Shown one piece after another: positions 2,433-32,645 of a stretch of 64,000 bases of DNA (position 1 is its first letter; each line of letters starts with the position of its first letter). Position numbers and translations under genes: made by a program. The stretch comes from Phyllosticta citribraziliensis. Lineage: Eukaryota. The notes under the pieces were generated by a model. It was given only the letters and a program-made list of their open reading frames with translations. It ran no database searches and had not been told where the DNA came from. Location: assembly GCF_038025025.1 (NCBI RefSeq), contig NW_027117346.1:1798001-1862000 (forward strand), given 5' to 3'.

Positions 2433-3569
2433 AGTCTAGATTTCATTACGATTGCTGACGGAGTTTATGAGAGTTCGCTTCTTTGATATTCTCCTGTTCT
2501 GCCTCTCCCATCCAACAAGACTTGTTCGCCACCGAGGCCCATTTACACAGGAGCAAGAGCCGATGCAGCAGATCAACCAAAAATACCACAACGCGTTCAA
2601 GGTGGCATCTAACACCTGTGTGTTGAGCTTTTCTATTCCGGGAGTGTGCAAGCAGCGACGGACGGATGGACGGAGCTGGATTGGATGCTACTACTACTGC
2701 AAGGCGCAATAAGAGACACATGGCGGGGTCGGCGATTGGTCGGTTGCAAGCAGTTGCATTCTCAAATTCTTCTTTTCAAGTCCTTTCTTTGCTTATCATG
2801 AGTCGTCGACCATTGTGGTGGTGGTGGTGGAGGAAGGCCAGGGAAGAGATCGATCGACTGGCGTTTTTGTATTTTCATGGTTTGTCTGGGAAGCTGCTAC
2901 CGTAGCAGGGGTTTGCACTTTTCTGCTTTTTTCCTGGTCGTTCTTCATGGATTGAGTGAGTCAGCCGGTCAACAAAGACTATTTTCTTCTCCCTGTGGGT
3001 GTCCAGAGAGGGGCATGTCTGTCAAATGATGGTTGAGCCGCCGCAAACCCGACGGATCGCGTTGCGAGGCCAGGCAACGCCCGGCTTGCATCGTGCGTGA
3101 GCGCGTGAGGGTTGATGTGTCAGTGGTTCCGCGGTAGTGAAGAAGCAGGTCGGCATTACTTGACTGCGTGGACCGGGAAATGTATTTCTACATGTTGAGT
3201 GAGTGCGATGAGCGATCCGTGGACTCGGAAGCCTGGTTTGGGCTGGGCTGGACGCCAAAAGAGCGGCCGGGGCTTGCTTGACGCAAAGAGCCAGGCGTAG
3301 CAAGGCAAAGCAAGGAAAGATGAGAAACTGAGGGTGTGGTGAGGAGTATAGTCAGATGACACAAGCACAATATGGGAATAAGTAGACAAACAGGATAGCG
3401 CAATCGCAATTGCTTCTTGCTGTTATCTGCTTGCTCGGATGGTTGACTGTTGGCTGTCTATTGCACGGAAGATGGCCTTTTCAGTGTTGAAAAAAGCGCA
3501 AGGGGCACGGTAGGCCGCAGGAAGAGCGTGACGGTCATCATGGTTGAGGGCGTAAGGTTAGAGGACATT

Positions 3570-3628
3570 GTGGTTGAGGGCGTCGTGGTTGATGGCGTCG
3601 TGGTTGATGGCGTCGTGGTTGATGGCGT
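3570..3628. repeat. 15-bp tandem repeat (GTGGTTGATGGCGTC-type), about 4 units
   Basis: Seen directly: gtggttgagggcgtc gtggttgatggcgtc gtggttgatggcgtc gtggttgatggcgt. Confidence 0.85.
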
Positions 3629-3832
3629 TAAGGGTGAGGGCGTCTCGGCCAAGGGCAAAAGCGTCTTGCGTGGGTGCCATTATGAGGGCAATGTGGTGGA
3701 GAGTGAGGGAGGACGTGGGAAGTGGGAGAGTTCAAGTGCCTGATGGCATTCAACAATACAGAGAGGGAAGGTGAGGGGGAAGGGAGGCAGGCCGGGGAGA
3801 GATGGTGAAGATGATTGAAGTGATTTGCGGAT

Positions 3833-4055
3833 GACTGCTCCCTAGTCTCATCCGCGACAGTGAATGAATGCTCCCTCCTCTTGTTCCTTCAAAAGCTTGA
3901 GCAACCCATCTTACATATTTGCCTGACCCGGCATTTCCACTTTACAAGATCACTTCTCCTTCCTCATACTTCTCTCCTCCAAGCTTTCTCTTCTCTTCTT
4001 TGTTGTATGCCGCATTCTGGGCAGACTGAAATGCCTGGACAGGATTCGCACATCT
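3833..4055 (-). pseudogene. C-terminal fragment of the UDG-like/Cys4 family (copy C)
   Basis: Minus strand reads CESC, frameshift, QAFQSAQNAAYNKEEKRKL, matching CKACRAHRSAQTTARAQEKKRKL of copy A. It ends in the shared EQEEGAFIHCRG* tail. Confidence 0.55.
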
Positions 4056-4232
4056 CGACTAGGACGTCGAAGACAGCGGAGATGGTGGAGGTAGTACTGA
4101 GGGAGGGGTAGAGTGAACAGATGGTGGATGGGAAAGTGGAGTTACCATTCATTCTATTCGTAGCTCCTAGCAAGCAAAAGCAAATATTAATTAGCATCTT
4201 TCCCACGTCATATACCTGCAACACAGACGATC

Positions 4233-5260
4233 TTATTCGTCTTGCTCCTCCTGCTCCTCTTGCTCGTCTTGCTCCTCTGCGAGCTTGCGCTTCTTCTCCT
4301 GCGCGCGTGCTGTGGTCTGGGCTGATCGATGTGCCCTGCACGCCTTGCACCGGTCAGAGTAGTCCCCATCTCCACTACCCTTTCTCTCTGTGACATTCTT
4401 CTTCCGTCCTCGACGGTCACCGACGTAAAACTCCTCTTTCTCAAACCAGGCGTCGCACCGAATACATTGTTTGGCTGAATCAGTCAGCCCATCTGGCCTG
4501 TCATCCTGGAACTGCTTCCTCTTGATAAGGCCATGGATTGCTGGCAGCTGCGCATTCCTGTCGTCAACGGAGGATTGGACCAACGCGGCCTGTGCGGCAG
4601 GTTGCGCTCGCTTCGTTGCCTCGCTCGGTTTCTATGTCATGGCAGCTACTTCGGCTGGTGTTCCAAACAGCACGATTTCTTGCCACTTGAGTGTCTTGCG
4701 CTCCATCTCTGACATATTTCGCGGGCCGAGATCGTCATCCCACGTGGGGATGTGCGAAACGTTGTTGTTCATGAGGAAGGCATGAATGCCTTGGTAGACG
4801 GCCTCAGTGCTGCCAAATTAGCTCAGCACGCCGTTCAAATTGCTGGCGAATTGGGTCAGATTGGCGCGAGTCTGCGCCAAAGCAGCATTGCCTTTTATAA
4901 GGCCCGTGACTTTGATATGGCTGAGATGGTCCAGGTTGTGCGCATACGGCACATCCAGGAAATTCAGCTGGCCGTAATTGACTTTGTCCCAACCCGCCTG
5001 CCAGACGGCGCCAAATGAGATGATGGCTGCGAACCTAAAGGTACGCTTGAATCATTAAAGGCTAGTATGAGTAGTCAAACCAAAACTTACTTGATATTGA
5101 ATGAGTCTCTTGCCATCAGGAGCTCTAGCTTGATGGCGATAAACAGACGCGCCATCTCTCTTTCGTCATGGAAAGCTTCACAGTAGGCTGTGAAGCCCTC
5201 CTTTGCTGTCTGCCGTCGGCAAATCATACGCAGGTCGAACAGGATGACTGGCCGTTTGAA
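4233..5260 (-). pseudogene. Degenerate copy A of an uncharacterised family (putative UDG-like fold plus CxxC..CxxC), 5'-truncated
   Basis: Translates FKRPVILFDLRMICRR..AIKLELLMARDSFNIK, intron (~5090-5037), FAAIISFGAVW..NFLDVPYAHNLDHLSHIK..HIPTWDDDL..KWQEI..CIRC..CKAC. In-frame stops at 4818-4820 and 4632-4634. Collinear with the copy at 8670-10020. Confidence 0.8.
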
Positions 5261-5623
5261 CAGAAAGCGGCAGGAACAGGAAGAGGGAGCATTCGTTCAC
5301 TGTCGCGGATAACATTAGGGAGCAGTCGTTCACAACCAGGCTTACGTCTAGGGAGCGGTCGGCCGCTAACACATTGCACCTGGGCAGCTGACCGGGACCA
5401 AATCTCTTCAACCGCCGTGAGGATAAGTAAGGTCAAGCCTCGCGACCAAGCCATCCACAAGCTTGTCGAGCTCTGAAGCCATGGTGTAATTTCGGAGGTT
5501 TGGTTGCAAATAGGCAGAAAAGAAAACGTCGGTGCCGATACAATGGCCCTACTATCAACCAGAGGCTCCAATGTCCCGGTCTTGCGACCTCTTCGCTTGG
5601 GAGTTCACTGTAGGATACTAGAT

Positions 5624-8275
5624 TTAGTCTCCTGTAAGATCGATACACTCAATCTCCACCATTGCGTCGTTTGCCCCACTTGGTGCTTGCGGTTTTCCGA
5701 GCGCTGCTTGCGCGTCGCCGACTTCCTGGCGACTCGAGTCCACTTCCCCTAAACTGGCCCAGTGGGCTCTCGCAGCGTCTCGAGCCGAGAGTGGTTCAGC
5801 CGGTGGAGCCTCCGATATCTCGTTGAACCGTTGCTCGCGACTAGGCGATGATCGCCCCATTAGAGACCCATCAGGGCTTGCCAATTCACCACCTGCAACG
5901 TCAAAACTTTCGTGATGGACGGGGACTCGTGGGACCGCCATCCATTCCGCGTCAAGTTGAGCCTGCAATTCCATTGCGAATCGATAATCATCGTCCAATG
6001 GCGAAGGTGCACGATGAGTGGACCCTGAATTTGCATTGTCTGGCCGAGTGCGGGCTCTGGGCGTGCTCAAAACTGGCAAAGGCCCCGGTGATGGGCTTCC
6101 GATGCGCCTTCTCACTGGATTTGAGCCACGACTGACGAAAAGGTCCTCTTCACTGTCGGAATCCGAATCTGAACCCAAATCGAGAATATTAGTCTCCCTG
6201 GTGTTTGGAAAAATGCGTGGGAACTCTGCGAATGGATTCACAAATCTTGGTCTGGGCATGGCGACAGGCGAACTCTCCGTGATCGAACTTGTTGCACCTG
6301 ATGTTGGCTGGGAAGTCATTGACGCACGAATGGCATTGGAATTGTTGAAGGTCCCCGCTGGCCGGGGCCTAGGAGCTGGCGGCCTCTCGGCCGAGGTTGC
6401 TGTCGAGTGAAGGCTGTCTTGAATTTCTGACCTTTCATTGGAGGAGCCAGATTCGCCTGCTCTTGGCCGACTAGATGCGGTCGCTGGTACTGAAGCTGTG
6501 GTACCTGCAGCGGAATGGGAGTTTAGTGCTGCGCGGATGATGTCTGAATTGTTGAGGGATTTTGGAGCCCGTGGCCTTCGTTCTCGAGGCTTTCGCGCCG
6601 CAGGTATGGCGGGCATTGGTGAGCTTTCCTCCATGGCCGGCGCTATTGGGGCAGATTCCCAGCCCCCAACAAGATCGTCTGTCGCGTCAATTCTTCTTCG
6701 AGTGGCCACAGTGGGTTCATCTTCTGGATATCGATCTCTTGTCTTTCGCTTTCTGCTTGTCTCAGGGACTTGGTGAGAATTGCCCAGGGCTGTTGTGGAT
6801 CCGGTGGGTGCCTCAGTCTGATGCAGCTCTTCAGGTTGTTCTACTCTTTCTCTCCGCTTACTGCTTCGTTTCGGAGATGGTGGAGCCTCAAAAAAGGAGG
6901 CAGGAAGGCCGTGACGGAGAATTGTCTCGAGGATTCCGCATTCAATTTTGGCATTCGGATCAAAGTCGCCCTTGGCTTTGGTAGCCAATTTTGCCCAATC
7001 TTCGCCCTCGGGTCGGACCATCAAGTCAAAGCTCACGAGATCACGAGGAAGAAATCGAATCTTGCGCTCCAGTCTTTGGTGACTGCCATCAGCATTCACC
7101 TTTCTCCTCGAGTTGACGAGTTCAACCCCAAAAGGTACACTCGTTGCAACACCCTCGTCTATGACAGCGCCGCGACTAAGCTTTCGAACGAGCAGCAAAG
7201 GACAGACATGGCGCAAAAAGTCCTTGGTCGACAACTGCACCTCTTCAATCAAGAATTGCCTCAACATTGCTTGGTCAATCTCCACATCCCATCCATTCCT
7301 TAAACCTCGAAGGGAATGCAGCTGTTCCCGGCTAGATGTAACTGGGTCGTTGTAGTGCTTCAGGTGCAGAGGGCGTGGCCAATCGGCGGGAATTTCGACG
7401 TCCTTGTTCTTGAAAAAATCCAGCATGTCGAATCTGAAATGCGGGAGACGGCTGTTCGGGGACTCGCAAAGCCTTTTGCCGTAGCCCTTCTTAACTGCCT
7501 TCAATGCCAGTGTTGGTCCGCATCCCTTCAGGCCCTGTCTGTTGTAGTCACCGCCGGCCAGCATTGCAAAGAGTACCATCCCTTCGCGATCGAGTTGGTG
7601 TTTTTGGAGGATCTCGTGCGCGCGATGGACACGGACACGACTCTCGTCCTTCTTTTGGCCCTTCCCACCTTCCTTGGGAACCTTGTGGGTACGGAAAAGC
7701 AACGTGCAGCCAAACATGAGCGTGTCACTGTCCTCAGACCACACGGCATCCACGATCCCCTCTTGTTGTAGTCGAGCGCATTCTGCTTCTGCCTCGGCGG
7801 GTGCTCGATGGTGTGGGACTCGTAGTCGGTCGAGAAGCTTCCGCAGGACGTTGATTTTTGAGTAGTCGACACGACCAGCAGGACCACCTCGTTTCCAAGG
7901 CCTTTTTGGGCCGTCGAAAATGAAGATGAGCTGGACATTGAGCCCGAGTATCTTGGTGATCCGGTAAAACAAGAGTCGTTCGACGGGGTTTGCATTGGGG
8001 GTTTCTACCTCGTGTTTTAGAACGGTTCCATTGAACCAAAAGAAGGACAATTACCTTTCAAGATTCCCTTGACTTGATGCTCGTTGAGGTTGTGGAATCG
8101 CCATCCCGCTTCGTCGACGGCGATGCGGAGAGGCCGACCGGTGCGCCGAAAGTGATCAGAGGCAAGTTGGGCGATTTCTGTTACATCTCCTTCTCCAACA
8201 ATGTCCCAGAGACTGCAGCGGCATGAGTAGAGGTCCAATTTCTGTGTCAATGAGTGCATACCCTGTGATACCCAT
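5624..8275 (-). CDS. XPG/Rad2-family structure-specific nuclease, GEN1/Yen1-like (flap endonuclease / Holliday-junction resolvase), 3 exons
   Basis: Spliced start MGITG|LWDIVG..PLRIAVDEAGWRF, IFIFDGPKRP, APAEAEAECARLQQEGIVDAVWSEDSDTLMFG, H3TH motif AMLAGGDYNRQGLKGCGP. Long disordered C-terminus ending in SIM-like CIDLTGD. Introns at ~8261-8213 and ~8054-8005. Confidence 0.9.
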
Positions 8276-8340
8276 GATGGCGGTCTTTGGCGACAGCCAA
8301 TACGTTGGTTGAGCTGTGGAGGAGAGTCGGTGGAGCCAGC

Positions 8341-8430
8341 GTCGCGTCGTCGGAAAGTTACCTAGCTCGAGACGCGTCGGTAAGGTATCCCTGCGCGATG
8401 ACGTAAAATCCGGTCGCGTCTGAACGCGTC
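8341..8430. promoter_or_regulatory. Cluster of MCB-like elements (ACGCGT x2, CGCG cores) in the divergent promoter of the GEN1-like gene
   Basis: ACGCGT at 8372-8377 and 8424-8429, TCGCGT near 8342 and 8414, 70-150 bp upstream of a DNA-repair gene. Confidence 0.5.
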
Positions 8431-8669
8431 TTCTTGGTTGGAGACGCCCAACACTGTCCAAGTTCATCCAATTTCTCAATTGTTCTCTTCTTATCCGACT
8501 CGCAGCATTACCATTCGTCGTCAATCCAGCCTCGTTATCAGCAGTCTGACAGACCACGTCCTTGCCAGCGACCTCTAACCTGACGCCCTCAATTAACACC
8601 ACCGAAACGCCAGATGGCCAATTTCATGGCACGCCCTTTGCTGCAACACCTCTACCAGACAAGACCGAG

Positions 8670-10020
8670 ATGCTTACCAAGGCAAAAAATAAGGAGGAGA
8701 AGATTGATGACGCAGTAATATCCCAATTATTCCTAACTTTAATGGAGCTTATCTAATTAAAATCTTAGTGGTCGAAACGTTCAGCTTTTGATCTTTCTTT
8801 CGACATCACGCAGCTTGTCAATATTGTGAGCGATTTCGAGAAACGCTGGCAAAGATTCCGCACGAGACGGGATGGCTACACCGCATGGTGCCCGTGCCCG
8901 AACGTCTTCGGAATCCAGAAGCGATAGTTTTTCTGGGCACTTGCCCAAGACACAACGAATCAGTAGACTTCACCGCTGTCCCGATCGAACAACGAGATTT
9001 AACACTACTCATCCTCATGGCAGTCCAGGAAGTCTTTGGAAAACTGGTGATATTGTTTGACCTTCGCATTATTTGCCAACGGAAGCCTGAGAAGGCCGGC
9101 CCGACCAAGTATTACAAATGGTTCCAAGATAAGCATAGGGTGGCGCAGCTAAACCTAGCCATTAAGCTAGAACTCCTGATTGCCAGGACAACATACAACA
9201 TTAAGTAAGTAGTAGATGGACCACCATTAACATATATTGACCATGTTGCTCTACAGATTTGCGGCCCAAGTTGAAGTACGGACAAGCTAACTTCCTCGAT
9301 GTTCCATTTATCCACAATCTTGACCACATTGGACACATCAAAACCACGGGCCAAATTTGTAAGCGTAGCCATGTTGTAGACTCGTCACAACCTGACTAAA
9401 TTTGCTAGAAACCTGCACTAAGTACTCAGAACCTTTAAGGACGAGTCTGAAGTCTATAACGCCATCCATGCCTTTCTCATGCCATGGTGTTGAACACATC
9501 CCAACATGGGATGAAGACCTTCTTACAGTTAGAACCATGTCCGAATTTGAGCAGAAGATGCTTAAATGGCAAGAGGTCATGGTCTTCAACATAGAGGAAG
9601 AGAAGAAGGCGCTCAAGTGGAAGCCTATGGAGTTGACTAAGCGGGTCAAGCCAGAAGATCAAGCAAAACTTACGCAACTCACGCGTGAGTCGATCAATGC
9701 CCTAGCAGCTCAAATCCCTGCTATTGATGCTGCTGCTGGAGTAAACAATAAGAGAAATCAACCAAGGCCAGAGGGCATGTCTGATCAGGCAGCGGTATGT
9801 ATTGCCTGCCGTGAGTTGCATGAACGAGACCAGTCCTTTGTGGGAAATAAGAAGGGACGACAGAAGGTTACTGAGAGGAATAAGACAAGTGATTCCAACT
9901 ACTCAGATTGCTGTCGTGCCTGCTGGGCGCAACTTTCGGCACCTTGATGTGTGTAAGAGAGCTGAAGAGAAAGCGGGAGGAACAGGAAGAGGGAGCATTC
10001 ATTCACTGTTGCGGATGAGA
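8670..10020 (+). pseudogene. Near full-length degenerate copy B of the UDG-like/Cys4 family, 3 exons
   Basis: ATG 8670 MLTKAKNKEEKIDDA, intron, WSKRSAFDLSF..CPCPNVFG, frameshift, NPEAIVFLGTCP..VILFDLRIICQR..AIKLELLIARTTYNIK, intron, FAA..NFLDVPFIHNLDHIGHIK..HIPTWDEDL..CIAC..CRAC. Has several frameshifts and stops (TAG 9377, TAA 9419). Confidence 0.8.
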
Positions 10021-10144
10021 CTAGGGAGCGGTCGGCTGTTACCGCTCGGGCTCGATGGTATCCTCTAGCGTCTGAGCCGCGTTGGGAGCATTCATGTTGC
10101 CGGGCGACGGGGGCGCGTCGACGGACGAATGCATCCAGTCAGAC

Positions 10145-12119: not shown

Positions 12120-13170
12120 CAAATCAGTACGTAGGTAGTCGAGAAAAATGTTGCAGCCAAGTCAGGAAACGAGCCTTGGGTTTTTCGGGGCATGGCTACG
12201 CCACAAAGCGAACAGGCCTCCTCGGAAAAATAGGAGACGTGCAGGATAATATTAGAGCCCTAGTTGGCGGAGAAGATATCAACTCATTGGACATCGTATT
12301 GCAACTGATGCTCCTCCGCAGACAACTACATTTTTCTGGCGACAGTTTTCATAGAATACCAAAGGGGGACAATCAGTCCTGTCTCATACCCCATTAATCA
12401 AGAGACCTATCAAAGACCCTGCAAATCTCCACTGCGGCCGCGTCCAGGGAGTATTCATCTACTACCACAATTGTGCCTTGGGAACGAACGTCCGCTATCA
12501 CATTTGGCCCGTAGATTTCTGACACCCCATTTTCAACATCTGATCCCCCTTTCTGGATCATTACATTTTCTTACGTTCTGAAATTGTTTAAGTGCAAATG
12601 AGAAGCTGATGCGACCATTGTCGATGAGGTTCAACATCTATGCCATGATGTCAAAAGAGCGCAAGTCAAGCAGTGTCGCACTCACCTCTCGGAGTTCGCG
12701 GGAGGGATATCCAGCCAACGTTCTCGCCTTCAGCTGCGCTCGAATCTTTAGATGGAAGACCTTCTTGTCTCCATCTGGACTTATGAGCATGTTCCCGACT
12801 AGATCCAGCAGAGTTACATCTTCGACGGCCTCTCGCTTCTGCATTGTGGTAATGTCCAACTGCGTCACTGAAGTGCTCTGGACCTACTGACAAGCCCGGC
12901 AGATCAATGAACCACGATTGGTTCAAACTATATGTATCGTGGATCCGGGTGTTGATGACAAGAGTTCGAATTCCTCTTCCCGCAACGAGAATCGGGGGGC
13001 AGTCATTCGCTCCCACAGCTCTGCTGTTCGCCGCTGCAGCTAGATATAGAGAGTACATCTTCGACACCCACTGTGCTACGCTGGCACAGGGTTGGTCACA
13101 CAACCGCAGTTCTAGGCCTTTGTCGAAGTGCAGCGCACTGCATACGTTGAAAGCAAGATGCGTCTGCACA
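12120..13170 (-). pseudogene. Possible heavily decayed protein-coding gene of unknown family
   Basis: Consecutive protein-like minus-strand segments (ORFs 12666-13169 and 12638-12868, then LMGYETGLIVPLWY..CSLCG) interrupted by stops and frame changes, with an upstream GCTGAC..CAG acceptor. No recognisable motif. Confidence 0.3.
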
Positions 13171-25600: not shown

Positions 25601-26169
25601 CGATAGAGGGAGATTCCGGTGCTCGTTGTCGGCTCTGGAGCATTCATGTGGGCATTTTGGCTTCTGGCAAGTGGTTGTTTTCAGGCGCAAACATCACCAA
25701 GCAACCAAACAACCAAGGACCCGAACCGAAGCATCCCTTTCTTTCACATGGCCGGACTGGATGTCGACGAAATACTTTCTCTGGTTTGCCACTACAGCTG
25801 AGCGTGCGCAACTCTTGACCCAAAACTCAACTACCTTACAGTTACAACACCTCCACGTGATTTTCGCCCAAGACGCAGGGCATTCCGCTCTCAGGGTGCC
25901 ATCAAAACAGGGCCATCTGCGAATCACTTCCACCATCTTCGCCGCTGGCTTCGCCGGCTGAGCCGACCTCTCCGATGGCCAAATGAGAAGCACAGCCTCC
26001 TTCGGCGATTCAATTCCCTCTTACTGTTCAAGCCCAACGGGTACTTGGAGTGTCCCACTTTCTAGATCCTCTCGTCTTCTCCCACCCTCCGTCCCGTCTC
26101 ACTCGCGCACCTTCTATCATCTCACCGGCCAGAAAAAGCTCTTCGTGGTTACCAAGCACATCGTCAATC

Positions 26170-26440
26170 ATGGGAATTCGAAAACCGAAGGAATCCGATA
26201 CAGGAGAGACCAGCAAAGATGGGGAGATTGCGTCCAAAAAGCAACCAGCGAAGCCTGACGATGCGGTAACGTCTCAGCTATCCCTCATTTCAAAAAGGCT
26301 CTACTGACTAGAGTGATAGTGGGCCAAAAAGTCGGCCTTTGACCACACATTCACGCTGGTTCAGCTGGTCGACATCGTTGGCAAATATCTTTTCCATAGG
26401 TCCAGGAGGTCATTGTCTTCCTGGGTAGGAATCGCTCAGA
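26170..26440 (+). pseudogene. N-terminal fragment (copy D) of the UDG-like/Cys4 family
   Basis: MGIRKPKE..KPDDA, intron at the same position as copy B, WAKKSAFDHTFTLVQLVDIVG (copy B: WSKRSAFDLSFDITQLVNIVS). After a deletion it reads EVIVFLG (copy B: EAIVFLG). Confidence 0.7.
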
Positions 26441-27352
26441 TCTTCTCACATCTTTGATTCAAATACTAATGCTCAAGTTTCTAGGCACGTCATCGGGTTT
26501 TGAATGATTCGACCAACGAATAAAACACATTAAGAGAGGGACTGCGGTATTGGACGATGCAGGTGTGTTGTTGCTAAAACGACGCGTGCCGAGCACCAGA
26601 TGACAGGACTTGACTGTCATCGTGAAAGGGTACGACAGGTAAGCGCACGCGCTTCCAGCGTTCCACCTCAGTTCTGACGACGCGCCCTACTGTGGCAGCC
26701 ACCCCGAAAAACACAAGGCCCAGAATCCCTTCTACGCCCCCAAAATGCGACCCTAGCCACCTTGTCTGAATCTTTCCAAGCAGAAGCAAAAGCCAGACTG
26801 CTCAACTCCCCCCCGAAAGCACAATTTGAGTTGAACGTGCCATACAATCCCCGGTAGTCGCGTGCGCCAACCAGTCCCTCACTCCGCTTCCGAGCTATCG
26901 TCATCACTTTCGCCGTCTGATCCAACCTCTTCGATGGCCAAATGGCCCGCGATGCTCTGGCTGTTCGTGATGCGCAGCAAAGACTCCAACGAGAGAGAAA
27001 GCTGAATGGCAAGTCATCATCCCAATTTGCCCGCAAAGCAGCCATGATACTGATCGAAGTACGCTGCGAATGCGTCAGCACTGAACTGTCTGCCGTTTTC
27101 CGCGCGTTGATCATTGCGCCTACTTCCGGCTACCGAGACCATGCCACTCAGACATTTCCCATTCCCGCCCCAACTATCACGCATTCAATCATTCATCGCC
27201 GTCGTCGTCCCCGCCGTCACTGCCACTCTCTGAATCGACGAAGCCAATTCTTCCGACTTCCCCCATGCTGTCGGTGACACCGAAGAGATCCTCCAAGGAG
27301 GGACTACCGCCGAGGGCGCCCCTCTCGTCGAAACCGAAGGAAGGAATGGGCT

Positions 27353-28526
27353 CTATAGCAGCCCCATTCGCAACATGCAGGCCAATGCAGGCCAGTGGCG
27401 CCAGTATCTCCCGGAGGTCTGGATAGTCGCGCAGGAGGACGCCGTGAACAATGCCACGCGTCAGCTGGTAGCGGCCGGGACGAAAACTGGAATTGTCAGC
27501 CCAAATCAGTTAAAAAAAAAGAAGGGGTGCCATACACGCGCTTCCATCCTGGAAGAAAGAGGAGGAAGACCGCGTCCCCGAACGCTTCTTCAACCTTGTT
27601 GTCGATACTGCCTCCGCTCTTGAGCTCCGGGTACGTCTGCAAGGTGAGCCAGCCGAAGCCCAGGGCCAAATTATTCCTTCTTGACTTCCCTCGCTTAAGG
27701 GCTTGGATATCCTTCAAAGCATTTAGTCCGTCTGGTCCAAAGACTTTGCAGAGGAGCACGAATGCCTTTGCAACCCAATCGACGTCAGTTTCGCCCACAG
27801 TGTCTCCGGAGATCGCAATGAGGTTGGAGATCGCATTGAGGTTGGAGATCGCATTGAGGTTGGAGATCGCAATGAGGTTGGAGATCGCATTGAGGTTGGA
27901 GATCGCATTGAGGTTGGAGATCGCAATGAGGTTGGAGATCGCATTGAGGTTGGAGATCGCATTGAGGTTGGAGATCGCAATGAGGTTGGAGATCAATGAG
28001 CTTGGAGATCGCAATGAGCTTGGAGAGGGCGGCCTTGCATTGGTCGACTTGAACCTGATGCGAGATGTGGGGAAGTTGGCGTGCAATGCGCCCGTGCTCT
28101 CCGTGGCCATTTCCTTTTTAGACGTGTAAGTAAAGAAGCCAAACAAAAGACACATCCAGCAACTCTTACCTCGTCAATCTCCATATCATCCTCGGAAAAG
28201 CCACTACCAGCTGCCGTCGTGCTCAAGGTTGATGTAGCATGAGACGTGCGATCGGAGCCCTCCACGCTCCCACCATTCTCTACAAAGCTTTTGGAGGTAT
28301 CGTCGTCAGAGCTGGCAGTGTTGGAATCCTTGGGAGGAGATCCAAATCCTTCAAAGGTGGACGTTTCGGAGTCCGGTTCGCCGTTCGTCTCAGAGTGGAG
28401 GTTGCGGTACTGTTGGTATGCATCCTCGACAATGGTCAAAACCTTTGTGTACCGAAGGTCGAGCTGGGCCTGGGCCTCAGCGTCATCGAAAAACGAGTCG
28501 ATCGAGTCTCTGATCAATCCCTCCAT
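27353..28526 (-). CDS. Uncharacterised protein with internal hexapeptide repeat ISNL(N/I)A, 3 exons
   Basis: Exon 1 MEGLIRDS..MEIDE|GTAAGA. Exon 2 EMATES..repeat..LPGWKRV|GTATGG..GCTGAC..CAG. Exon 3 FRPGRYQLTRGIVHG..MGLL*. Frame is intact across both introns. Confidence 0.6.
27809..28025. repeat. 18-bp minisatellite GAGATCGCA(A/T)TGAGGTTG, 10 perfect plus 2 degenerate units, with 54-bp higher-order period
   Basis: Variant order A,T,T,A,T,T,A,T,T,A read directly from the sequence. Confidence 0.97.
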
Positions 28527-28829: not shown

Positions 28830-31151
28830 ATGTTACCCGCAGGCCTCAGCACTTCTTACGCTATGCGCCAGCGTAAGAAGATCCATGAGGTATCTCACAG
28901 CTAATGGACGAACCGAAAAAGCAGCGTGACTGACTCTGAGTAGATCCTACGTTCCCTGAAAAGCCTCGAAATCAAAGAGAGTGACTTTGATGCTCTAGTT
29001 TCCGACATCATACAATGTACGTGAGCAGAATCTTCCTTGATGCGCCAACTAACGGGACTAGACGCTGAGGACCATGGCCTGTCAACATCTGCCTACGACG
29101 AAGCCGTACAACATCAAATGCAAACTACGCGGACCGGCAAGACTGAAATGGCGTCGACAAGGGCGGGAGTTGGTGCTGCAAAACCCCACTCCAGCGACAA
29201 GGCTTAAGCTGTCAAGCGCCAGAGAGGTACACCCAATGGGCTGTCGCATTCAACAACATCACAATCTTCTCTGGTCTCCACGAGTTCGGCTGCACAGGAG
29301 AAAACCCAATACCAGCTACTGATGGATCTTTGGGTGGGGCAGGATGGCGAGGCGGCAAAGGACAAGTAAGAGCCTGGCAGGAGAGGGATAGAGATCATTC
29401 CTGAGGCGAGCGAAGCCAGTAGTCACGTCAGAATCAAGTCCCTGTCCGTATCTTTTGATTTGCATGTGTCGTGATGTGCTATCTGTTGGTTGTGTTTGCC
29501 CAAGGCAATAAACGTGCACAGTTCCGAGGCCAGCCCAGTAACCAACCACACTTGGAGCGGCGTCAACAACACACAAACTGACAGCCGAAAACAAACCACA
29601 CCTCAAGTCAAAATCCTCCTCCATGACATCCACGAAACAATGACTCGTCCACCCAAGATGAAGGCCATTGAAGACGTTTGTTTGCCCCGACCCCAGGAAT
29701 GATACACGCGCTGAAGAAACTCGTGCCAGCTCAAAGCGAAGCTCCTCTCGGAGATTTCGGAGAGCCAGGACCTGCTGAATTACGCCCTTTCCGAGGTCGT
29801 CAAGTGTAAGATGTGGCCCCATAAAGCCAAATGGAGAGAAGGCGGCTCACCAGCCCAGATGGATATGAGAAAGACTTCCAACCGAAGACTCAAGCACATT
29901 TGAGGGCGAGGGCGATGGCTGAGAATCCGCCTCAACAATTGCAAAAGGTGAGCGCAACACTGTTTGACGTGACATGCTTTGTTGACACAATGGTATAGGC
30001 TTTGGACCTCGTCGACAACGGCCTCTTCTTCGGTGCCCCAGATCCAATTGGCATGATGGCAAAACGTAAGAGAATGTTGCTTCCGCGGTGAAGGCATCAG
30101 CTGACTGCCGTAGGCTGCAAAGGCACCAATCTGAATTTTCGTCTGATCTTGTCAAAAGCCGTCGACGCCAAAAAGAATGAGGAAAAGGCGAGAATGGCCG
30201 CGGGAACCTGCGACGACCCCGTTGACTTAACAGATCCGCCCCCAAGTCCGGTAATCCTTGAAGTTGAAGTCAAGCATAAAAGGGAAGAAGACGTCATCAT
30301 CAGCATCTGCCGGGTCTTGGTTATAAATGCCGCCACTCACGCACCCATCTACGGTGGACCAAAGTTTCTCGACAACAGCTGTCACATCGACACCCTCCTC
30401 AAGCTTGGTAGTGTCCTTGGCCTCCACACCATGGAAACAGAACGTGTGACAAACCTTGGGACAATGTTCGCCCTATTCTCCCAGTTGGACTTGTCGCCGG
30501 AGAGCCGAGTCGACGGATTGCGGGATGATATCCGCAATACGGCCTACAACCATGAGACTGGCGCAGAGCCTGGAAAGTATTTCACCATTGCCACCGCGTG
30601 GGAAAAAGTGGCGTCACAGTTCAACGAGACCAGGATATCATCATCTCGGCTGACATGGTGCAAAAGCTGCGGCTGGAGGGCACCATCACCAATGATACAA
30701 TGCTCTGCAATCCTCGAGCCTGTGAGTTTCTATGGGCCGACCAGCTTGCAAGCCGGGCTTGAGGAGACTTTCGGTCAGCGCAACACAGACAAGACTTGCG
30801 AAGGATGTGAGAGCCCGAGCATGACATCCGCCCAAGTGCCTGATACCGGTCCGCCAGAGTACCTGACCTTGGGTGAATGGGCAGACCCATTCCTGAATGA
30901 GCTTTTGCTTGGTGGAGTCAGTGTGCAAGTTCTCAACCTTGACTTGCAAGAAACGAGACAACTACAAGGTCAAGGCGGTCGTCGAATACTTTCAAAAGCA
31001 CTTCGCATTGTGGTGGTACGCTGATGGCGACTCGTGGCAATATGACGACACTCGTGCTAGGGTATCGAAGCAAGAGAAGAAGAGAGGACCTGTGCTATGT
31101 GGAAAAGTTGCCTTGCTCGTGTTGGAGAGGCGACGAGGCGGAAGGTGGTAA
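28830..31151 (+). pseudogene. Decayed multi-exon gene ending in a USP/peptidase C19-like cysteine-protease domain
   Basis: 5' exons ATG 28830, 28944-29016 and from 29062, with premature TAA at 29205. 3' part has GPKFLDNSCHIDTLL (Cys box), CKSC/CEGC zinc fingers and PPEYLTL. After a frameshift near 30955 it reads YKVKAVVEYFQKHFALWWYADGDSWQYDD (His/Asp box). Whether the 5' and 3' parts are one gene is inferred. Confidence 0.6.
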
Positions 31152-31946: not shown

Positions 31947-32339
31947 GGTTGTTGACGTAAACTGGGCGATGGAGGGTTGTAGAAGGGAGGTCGTGAGGTG
32001 TCCGTTGTTTGGAGTGTTGGGAGGGTGTGGAGGAAGAAAAGTGCTGAGTCTATCATTTGCAGTGTGTCTTGGGAAAGTCATCTGGTATTTGCGGCGATTC
32101 ACAATGGGCAACACACTATTTCACGACAAAAGCTCACACCTCCGCTGGGTCGGCGCAGGCGTGGAAAAACACGGAGAACATGTCTGCCCGCTTATAATTC
32201 AGAGCTTCACAACAAACAAGGTTCAATTTAGTTTCGATTCTGCATTAGATAGCTCATCGAGAAGCTTGCTCATCAAGATTGAAGTCAAACCCCCAGATCT
32301 CGGTGGAATGATACGGCCGGCAGGTGGTGAAGGAAGCTC

Positions 32340-32645
32340 CTCCTTCCATGGTGTGTAGGCCAAGTATGCTGGCAAGCTTGGGGAGGGTGTCAATTAGACC
32401 GCTTGGTCCGCCGTAGATGGGAGTCTTAGCAGAGGCAGTTGTAGTCAAGACCTTACAGATGCTGGTGTGACATCTACTTCTTCAAGGTGCTTGACTTTAA
32501 TACCAAAGGGCTCCAGACTTGCAGGCGGGTCTGTCAAGTTGATGGGATCGTCACATTCGCCGTGGCCATTAGCCCTTTCTACTTGTCCTTTTCAAGCTCG
32601 GTTCCGAAGGGCTGAGATGCGTGTCAGGTCAATCGGATTCCCTCG
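32340..32645 (-). pseudogene. Inverted paralogous fragment of the USP-like domain N-terminus, catalytic Cys deleted
   Basis: CDDPINLTDPPAS..IKVKH..SICKVL..PIYGGPSGLIDTLPKLASILGLHTME versus CDDPVDLTDPPPS..VEVKH..SICRVL..PIYGGPKFLDNSCHIDTLLKLGSVLGLHTME. Confidence 0.8.

Follow-up and report, generated by a model that had tools for sequence, protein, structure and literature searches.

Broken copies of an orphan gene family around an intact GEN1/Yen1-like nuclease gene and among MITE relics in Phyllosticta citribraziliensis

Introduction

The Spok and Starship meiotic-drive systems comprise multi-copy, patchy, and often pseudogenized genes located in rearranged regions. The UDG superfamily (PF03167), for its part, embraces the UNG, the MUG/TDG, and the family-4 and -5 enzymes. 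The GEN1/Yen1 proteins (Rad2/XPG class 4) are Holliday-junction resolvases, and Yen1 is described as conserved in the Pezizomycotina, with no mention of a second copy in the available part of that source (PMC7145719). Among the transposons, CA..TG ends along with duplications of 2–5 bp mark the CMCT clade—EnSpm, Chapaev, Transib, and Plavaka—in whose transposases C(2)C and H(3–4)H motifs occur, as stated in the accessible portion of PMC12730594. A search of the literature gave nothing relevant on either a second GEN1 subfamily or a fungal UDG-like family.

The window considered here—the whole 64,000-nucleotide stretch analyzed, located at C9:1798001–1862000 in a 31.4-Mb genome of Phyllosticta citribraziliensis—was the subject of an earlier note, which proposed from the sequence that an unannotated gene family with a UDG-like order of motifs and a Cys4 finger flanked a GEN1/Yen1-like nuclease, and that the two might form a lesion-processing, genome-defence, or drive-like system. 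Like the Spok/Starship genes, this family is multi-copy, patchy, often pseudogenized, and situated in rearranged regions; unlike those systems, the locus, which occupies some 10 kb between housekeeping genes, contains neither a kinase nor a tyrosine recombinase, and no sequence similarity to them was found.

Results

The nuclease

The nuclease gene (Table 1) has an intact frame with XPG-N and XPG-I domains and all the acidic motifs checked, and both of its introns were spliced out in the RNA-derived contigs of run X1; by these features and its PF00867 match it is a member of the GEN1/Yen1 resolvases, with 41% identity to the canonical Yen1 on C4 (L013:2366–4933). In contrast to the latter, the window gene, whose activity is a predicted one, is, judged by its sequence, a member of a second GEN1/Yen1-like subfamily that extends across the Dothideomycetes. 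A search with the window nuclease gave 669 matches, the best 120 of which all scored higher to the window gene than to the C4 gene, a comparison biased by the matches having been found with the window gene as the query. The window nuclease grouped with P. capitalensis (100/100) and with Diplodia orthologs (86/96 in one tree, in which the C4 row is to be disregarded; 0.99 in a second tree), the placement that vertical descent would give. Among the best 120 of the 669 matches, neither P. citricarpa nor P. citriasiana was represented by a protein, an absence that is weak given the length filters.

The genome contains two GEN1/Yen1-like genes, and the second subfamily, widespread as it is in that class, includes many divergent Aureobasidium variants. 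Inside the nuclease frame, run X1 contained a GT..AG skip on the plus strand (7135–7195), which suggests a spliced antisense transcript.

Table 1. Coordinates within the window of the nuclease, the family copies and fragments, and the MITE relics
Feature	Position	Strand	Details
5' family fragment (missed in the earlier note)	3526..3769	-	DNA matches to B 8572-8610 and D 26014-26085
Fragment C, 3' tail of a copy, continuing into internal repeats of the MITE (3876-3827)	3825..4055	-	
Copy A, 5'-truncated pseudogene	4233..5251	-	intron 5090-5035; stops 4820-4818 and 4634-4632
Duplicate of the gene tail with 33-bp MITE repeats, at the cut point of copy A	5257..5369	+	89% identical to 9963-10034; nhmmer E 6e-13
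GEN1/Yen1-like XPG nuclease, intact, 850 aa	5624..8275	-	introns 8261-8213, 8054-8005; PF00867 E 5.5e-25
Copy B, transcribed pseudogene	8462..10135	+	exons ~8462-8714, 8769-9204, 9257-9358, 9409-10135
Relic of MITE internal repeats, end of copy B	9990..10097	+	nhmmer E 2e-8
Two MITE relics	12428-12522, 12982-13078	+	joins in related DNA at 12933, 13080
Copy D, decayed 5' part	25927..26440	+	intron 26266-26319; start duplicated at 26887-26944

Copies A and B

As the earlier note had recognized, A and B (the latter over roughly 8560–9950) are collinear paralogs that point outward from the nuclease: a self-comparison with six-frame reading gave 65% nucleotide identity between them, and the RNA-derived contigs of run X1 lack the shared NIK|FAA intron in both copies (in B, 9205–9256). 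Over 224 aligned codons the identity by codon position was 0.67/0.68/0.38, with dS saturated and a dN of 0.42, a pattern from which we infer that selection acted on an ancestral protein gene. The ancestor of the family is thus a real protein gene, and the present copies are unable to make the full protein. Copy A is without the N-terminal half and copy B without the IISFGAV stretch, so that the consensus offered in the earlier note was a chimera. Copy B, whose first exon was deduced from the length of the RNA-derived contig, has a frameshift near 8829, a deletion after FAA, and in-frame stops at 9377–9379 and 9419–9421. In run X3, which stems from another organism, a Trp stands where copy A has one of its stops. 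Both stops of A fit CpA/TpG transitions, which circumstance is only suggestive of RIP; RIP itself was rejected, with a negative composite index over 3–13 kb and no excess of transitions between A and B. An additional GT..AG intron of B (9359–9408, +), spliced in run X1, was gained in former coding DNA.

Upon splicing, copy A retains a 140-codon frame, and the RNA of copy B contains partial frames only. One X1 contig extends from the nuclease (7134) through spliced copy A to 4167, contiguous with the 3' half of the nuclease, and run X2 has an oligo-T end at 4125; copy A is therefore probably the 3' UTR of the nuclease, a single contig being no proof of one transcript. The family is not, as had been stated, unannotated, since hypothetical proteins (P0003, named, and P0005, unnamed) have been annotated over parts of both copies; in its source, a protein with 100% identity to a part of copy A is listed as a hypothetical protein of P. 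citribraziliensis.

Further copies and distribution of the family

The fragments reported in the earlier note at 3833–4055 and 26170–26440 do exist, and copy D shares with B the latter's first intron, of 54 nt; the list was nevertheless incomplete, having missed 3769–3526 (-), 5257–5369 (+), and 26887–26944 (+). Elsewhere in the same genome, broken copies lie at C9:260–262 kb and C11:1.22 Mb, the second detected solely by a local profile (iE 7e-6). Every genomic copy read is broken, with disablements in A, B, D, and the C9:260 kb and C11 copies. The copy counts are lower bounds—the genome searches score the top candidates only, and first missed the C11 copy—and an intact copy may exist somewhere in the genome.

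A plus-strand match at C11:1215453 (E 0.02) is doubtful as a family copy because its upstream part duplicates the neighboring kinase. On C11 an APH-like kinase gene (L035:5378–7110, +) is located between family fragments, a piece of its N-terminal part being duplicated 2 kb upstream (L031:1374–1480). Just past the C11 copy, a further fragment of the N-half is inverted (L036:882–932, +), so that inverted local duplicates recur.

A phmmer search of 1.84 billion representatives gave five family matches: two that correspond to A and B, two neighboring split annotations from P. citriasiana whose clusters include P. citricarpa members, and one protein of Tothia fuscella, at 35% identity over 143 residues. 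Longer homologs of the N-half of B numbered 0/249 candidates; the search for further Tothia-like proteins returned only that protein itself among 89; and relatives were absent from the searches of Atlas features, metagenome contigs, viral contigs, PDB sequences, NCBIfam, and Rfam. These five matches, the broken state of all the genomic copies read, and the K/R-rich tails support the description of the family as lineage-restricted, rapidly turning over, and probably nuclear.

Motifs

The core alignment consisted of six rows (A, B, the C9:260 kb and C11 copies, P. citriasiana P0004, and Tothia P0007), in which only P-x2-H-x3-H is invariant; the residue after the His is N, N, S, I, N, and N, and conservation reaches about 90 residues beyond the His. 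Two other readings were discarded: 'PYVH' in the C9:260 kb copy as the His motif, in that the profile puts the motif 400 nt further on; and LG[H/W] as a tyrosine-recombinase motif, with no HxxR present and the Tyr spacing wrong. The frame kept in common with the C9:260 kb copy (..MVPVPERLRNPEAIVFLG) scored 75, with 0/2000 shuffles as high, whereas the frame of the previously proposed PNVFG motif scored 16 against the same copy, a value reached by 1016/2000 shuffles; the conserved frame shared with that copy reads ..PVPERLRNPEAIVFLG, not PNVFG, which lies in another frame.

The Cys4 finger described in A and B is indeed there, though with a spacing of 34–35 residues instead of approximately 28 (CxxC-x34-CxxC in B), and in complete form is confined to those two; P0006 has one CxxC, neither the Tothia protein nor the C9:260 kb copy has the finger, and a C2H2-like pattern follows the C11 copy. 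The Cys4 region of A gave weak PHROG matches to phage endonuclease families (E 0.008–0.2), a likeness to the zinc fingers of phage endonuclease VII/HNH proteins that is restricted to the finger region. Copy A carries the P-x2-H-x3-H core, CxxC-x35-CxxC, and a K/R plus acidic tail; 'EQEEGAFIH' in B and C, which had been taken for the tail of the protein, runs into MITE repeats.

The invariant P-x2-H-x3-H is most likely the metal site of a nuclear protein, and the invariant His pair together with the zinc fingers and basic tails suggests that the ancestral protein probably bound metal and was located in the nucleus. That product would have acted on nucleic acids and might have comprised an N-terminal alpha/beta part, P-x2-H-x3-H, a helical part, an optional zinc finger, and a K/R tail.

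The MITE

A 72-nt element common to B, C, and 5257–5328 is 86–93% identical among these tails, compared to 65% for the coding DNA, so that the element is younger than the divergence of the genes. Its core has at least 201 matches in the genome (control, 0), and the element is the internal 33-bp unit of a MITE of 116–218 bp whose terminal inverted repeats, of about 30 bp, start with CACAGTG (91 matches; control, 0). A 4-bp target duplication was exact in 11/21 instances and had one mismatch in 6 more; the element, being short, non-coding, present in many copies, and bounded by inverted repeats and a target duplication, is in consequence classed as a MITE. The target duplications are GC-rich and the number of internal 33-bp units is variable (e.g., L270, L272, L275, L277). 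A 56-nt inverted pair at 3833 and 10033, considered as the possible ends of a transposon carrying the nuclease, was rejected, both members being internal units of the MITE.

Five MITE relics occur between 3.8 and 13.1 kb of the window, with none in the other 54 kb and none at eight other C4/C9 loci, and a complete MITE interrupts the C11 family copy. The contigs of run X3 contain two joins on opposite strands, 5442 with 12933 and 9289 with 13080, which between them enclose the relic at 12982–13078; these joins may be misplaced, the contigs having been positioned at 80% likeness. Neither family sequence nor a transposase was found near 40 other MITE loci (28 plus 12), nor was an autonomous transposon found for the CACAGTG MITE. 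No description of this MITE was found in the literature, on which point supplements could bear; in the available text of PMC12506662, 87% of the interspersed repeats are unclassified and the term 'MITE' is absent.

Discussion

The explanation that we consider probable is that an old orphan family has here been duplicated locally, inverted, and left to decay, MITE relics lying at the breaks or close to them, and that the nuclease became enclosed by chance. A, B, C, D, and the extra fragments would be dying members of a small, old Dothideomycete gene family subject to birth and death; the outward-facing A/B pair would have arisen by local duplication plus inversion; and the breaks at or near the MITE relics might have come about through ectopic recombination or aberrant transposition. 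Given such duplication and inversion with relics at the breaks, the nuclease would be an enclosed bystander and not a partner. The five relics, the X3 joins, and the MITE inside the C11 copy count in favor of rearrangement near the MITE; against MITE-linked breaks count copies D and C9:260 kb, which have no relic nearby, as well as the failure to find an autonomous transposon; and against the nuclease as a bystander counts run X3, in which relatives appear to keep a family copy plus the nuclease at this locus. The splicing of A and B and the 140-codon frame in A leave a truncated product or a regulatory role of these copies as a counterpoint to decay. The locus would accordingly exemplify an orphan family decaying in a MITE-marked patch of rearrangement, and its analysis drew attention to an abundant family of MITEs and to the second GEN1/Yen1-like subfamily across the Dothideomycetes, both of them overlooked.

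A proposal that is compatible with this decay, and that we deem unlikely, is that the ancestral protein had a very divergent alpha/beta glycosylase fold of the UDG superfamily, flipping and excising or binding modified bases independently of the nuclease. The comparison set comprised 204 UDG-superfamily domains in six groups (41, 11, 40, 4, 4, and 104), from which eight loci belonging to unpublished genomes were excluded along with four small clusters. In a low-confidence model of the N-half of B (pLDDT 47.6), a strand (31–36), a helix (52–69), a strand (72–77), and a helix (101–122) follow the order of the UDG core, a hydrophobic strand ends in Gly, and a Pro precedes the invariant His by three residues as in the fetched family-4 sequences; moreover, the best local hhalign matches were in the expected register—motif A for MUG and UNG, the second strand for a third family—and a merged UDG-superfamily HMM scored 0.7 bits, with 20/500 shuffles as high (p ~0.04, in one of many tests; the median of held-out UNGs was 3.1). 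Against that fold, hhalign gave no score above the shuffles in four runs (best E 0.05–0.1), a weak test that misses true remote UDG pairs, since the positive controls of UNG versus family 4 or MUG also failed; Pfam had no match for the family pieces and none to PF03167 above the cut-off; and in this genome PF03167 has just two matches, UNG1 and a MUG/TDG gene. Fold searches that started from two low-confidence models gave neither a UDG nor any match above background, an outcome that speaks neither for nor against the fold. With PNVFG off-frame, the VFGxG segment that precedes motif A in family 4 is wanting; Pro follows the His in 0/6 family rows and HPS is found in 0/6, whereas the H-P motif pattern occurs in 34/41 family-4 and 72/104 UNG sequences; the 'IISFG' strand is absent from B and the C11 copy and, in the C9:260 kb copy, stands a long way from the His; and the second invariant His, the longer conserved helical extension, and the broken state of all copies read set the family further apart. 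The UDG-like reading is consequently weak, the fold being unproven, and a DNA-glycosylase function is not supported. Were an intact member truly a UDG-fold enzyme, its activity, whether in DNA modification or in repair, would be a new fungal one and of relevance to genome defence.

Quite unlikely, in our estimation, is the more specific notion that the family is an undescribed eukaryotic branch of that superfamily, with a metal site of two His and C-terminal zinc fingers that are interchangeable (Cys4 in A and B, C2H2-like after the C11 copy), which would act on modified bases and turn over rapidly in the Dothideomycetes, as do the TET/JBP genes in other fungi.

It is improbable that the family represents the decayed gene of an autonomous CMCT-type transposon that mobilized the MITE, with H-x3-H as the zinc motif of a transposase or accessory protein. 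The CAC..GTG inverted repeats and 4-bp duplications would fit the clade, as characterized in the accessible portion of PMC12730594, and the H-x3-H, the multi-copy, broken, and patchy state of the family, and the MITE repeats that abut A, B, and C and sit inside the C11 copy would fit such an origin; but the family lacks both an invariant acidic triad and a C(2)C upstream of H-x3-H—only P, H, and H being invariant—and has no Pfam or PDB transposase match, no terminal repeats enclosing any of its copies, and no sequence near the 40 other MITE loci, and the C11 gene is itself interrupted by a MITE. The repeat also differs from the CMCT elements in carrying internal 33-bp tandem units, with neither a transposase nor an autonomous element found.

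Very improbable, finally, is a linked repair, defence, or meiotic-drive module of family and nuclease—a lesion-marking plus a cutting enzyme—which the copies on both sides of the nuclease, the contiguity of copy A with the nuclease RNA in one contig, and the X3 relatives would favor, but against which both flanking copies are broken and the nuclease intact, the three other copies (C9:260 kb, C11:1.22 Mb, and 26 kb of the window) have no nuclease nearby, the surrounding 22 kb of the canonical C4 Yen1 contain no family copy, Tothia has one nuclease among the matches listed on a 919-kb contig and the family gene on a 318-kb contig, and the nuclease subfamily has 669 matches as opposed to five for the family. 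Outside this locus no XPG nuclease lies beside any placed family copy, in a small sample of three copies from the same genome and one other genus. The physical tie to a structure-specific nuclease that the earlier note had envisaged is accordingly not supported, and the analysis gave no evidence of a drive or defence module. Linkage to the mating type was likewise set aside, the flanking genes named in the available part of 10.1101/2020.04.14.040725 not being recognized in the window.

Returning to the window itself, where the orphan family is probably decaying, we noted several other features. At 12238–12954 (-) a spliced transcript (intron 12685–12638) belongs to another degenerate orphan gene, with a paralog at 29845–30032 (-); the open frame of an orphan gene contains an 18-nt tandem repeat at 27808–28026 (-); and a 310-codon frame with CxxC pairs and no Pfam match (30092–31024, +) has an inverted, decayed paralog 1.3 kb away (32289–32645, -).
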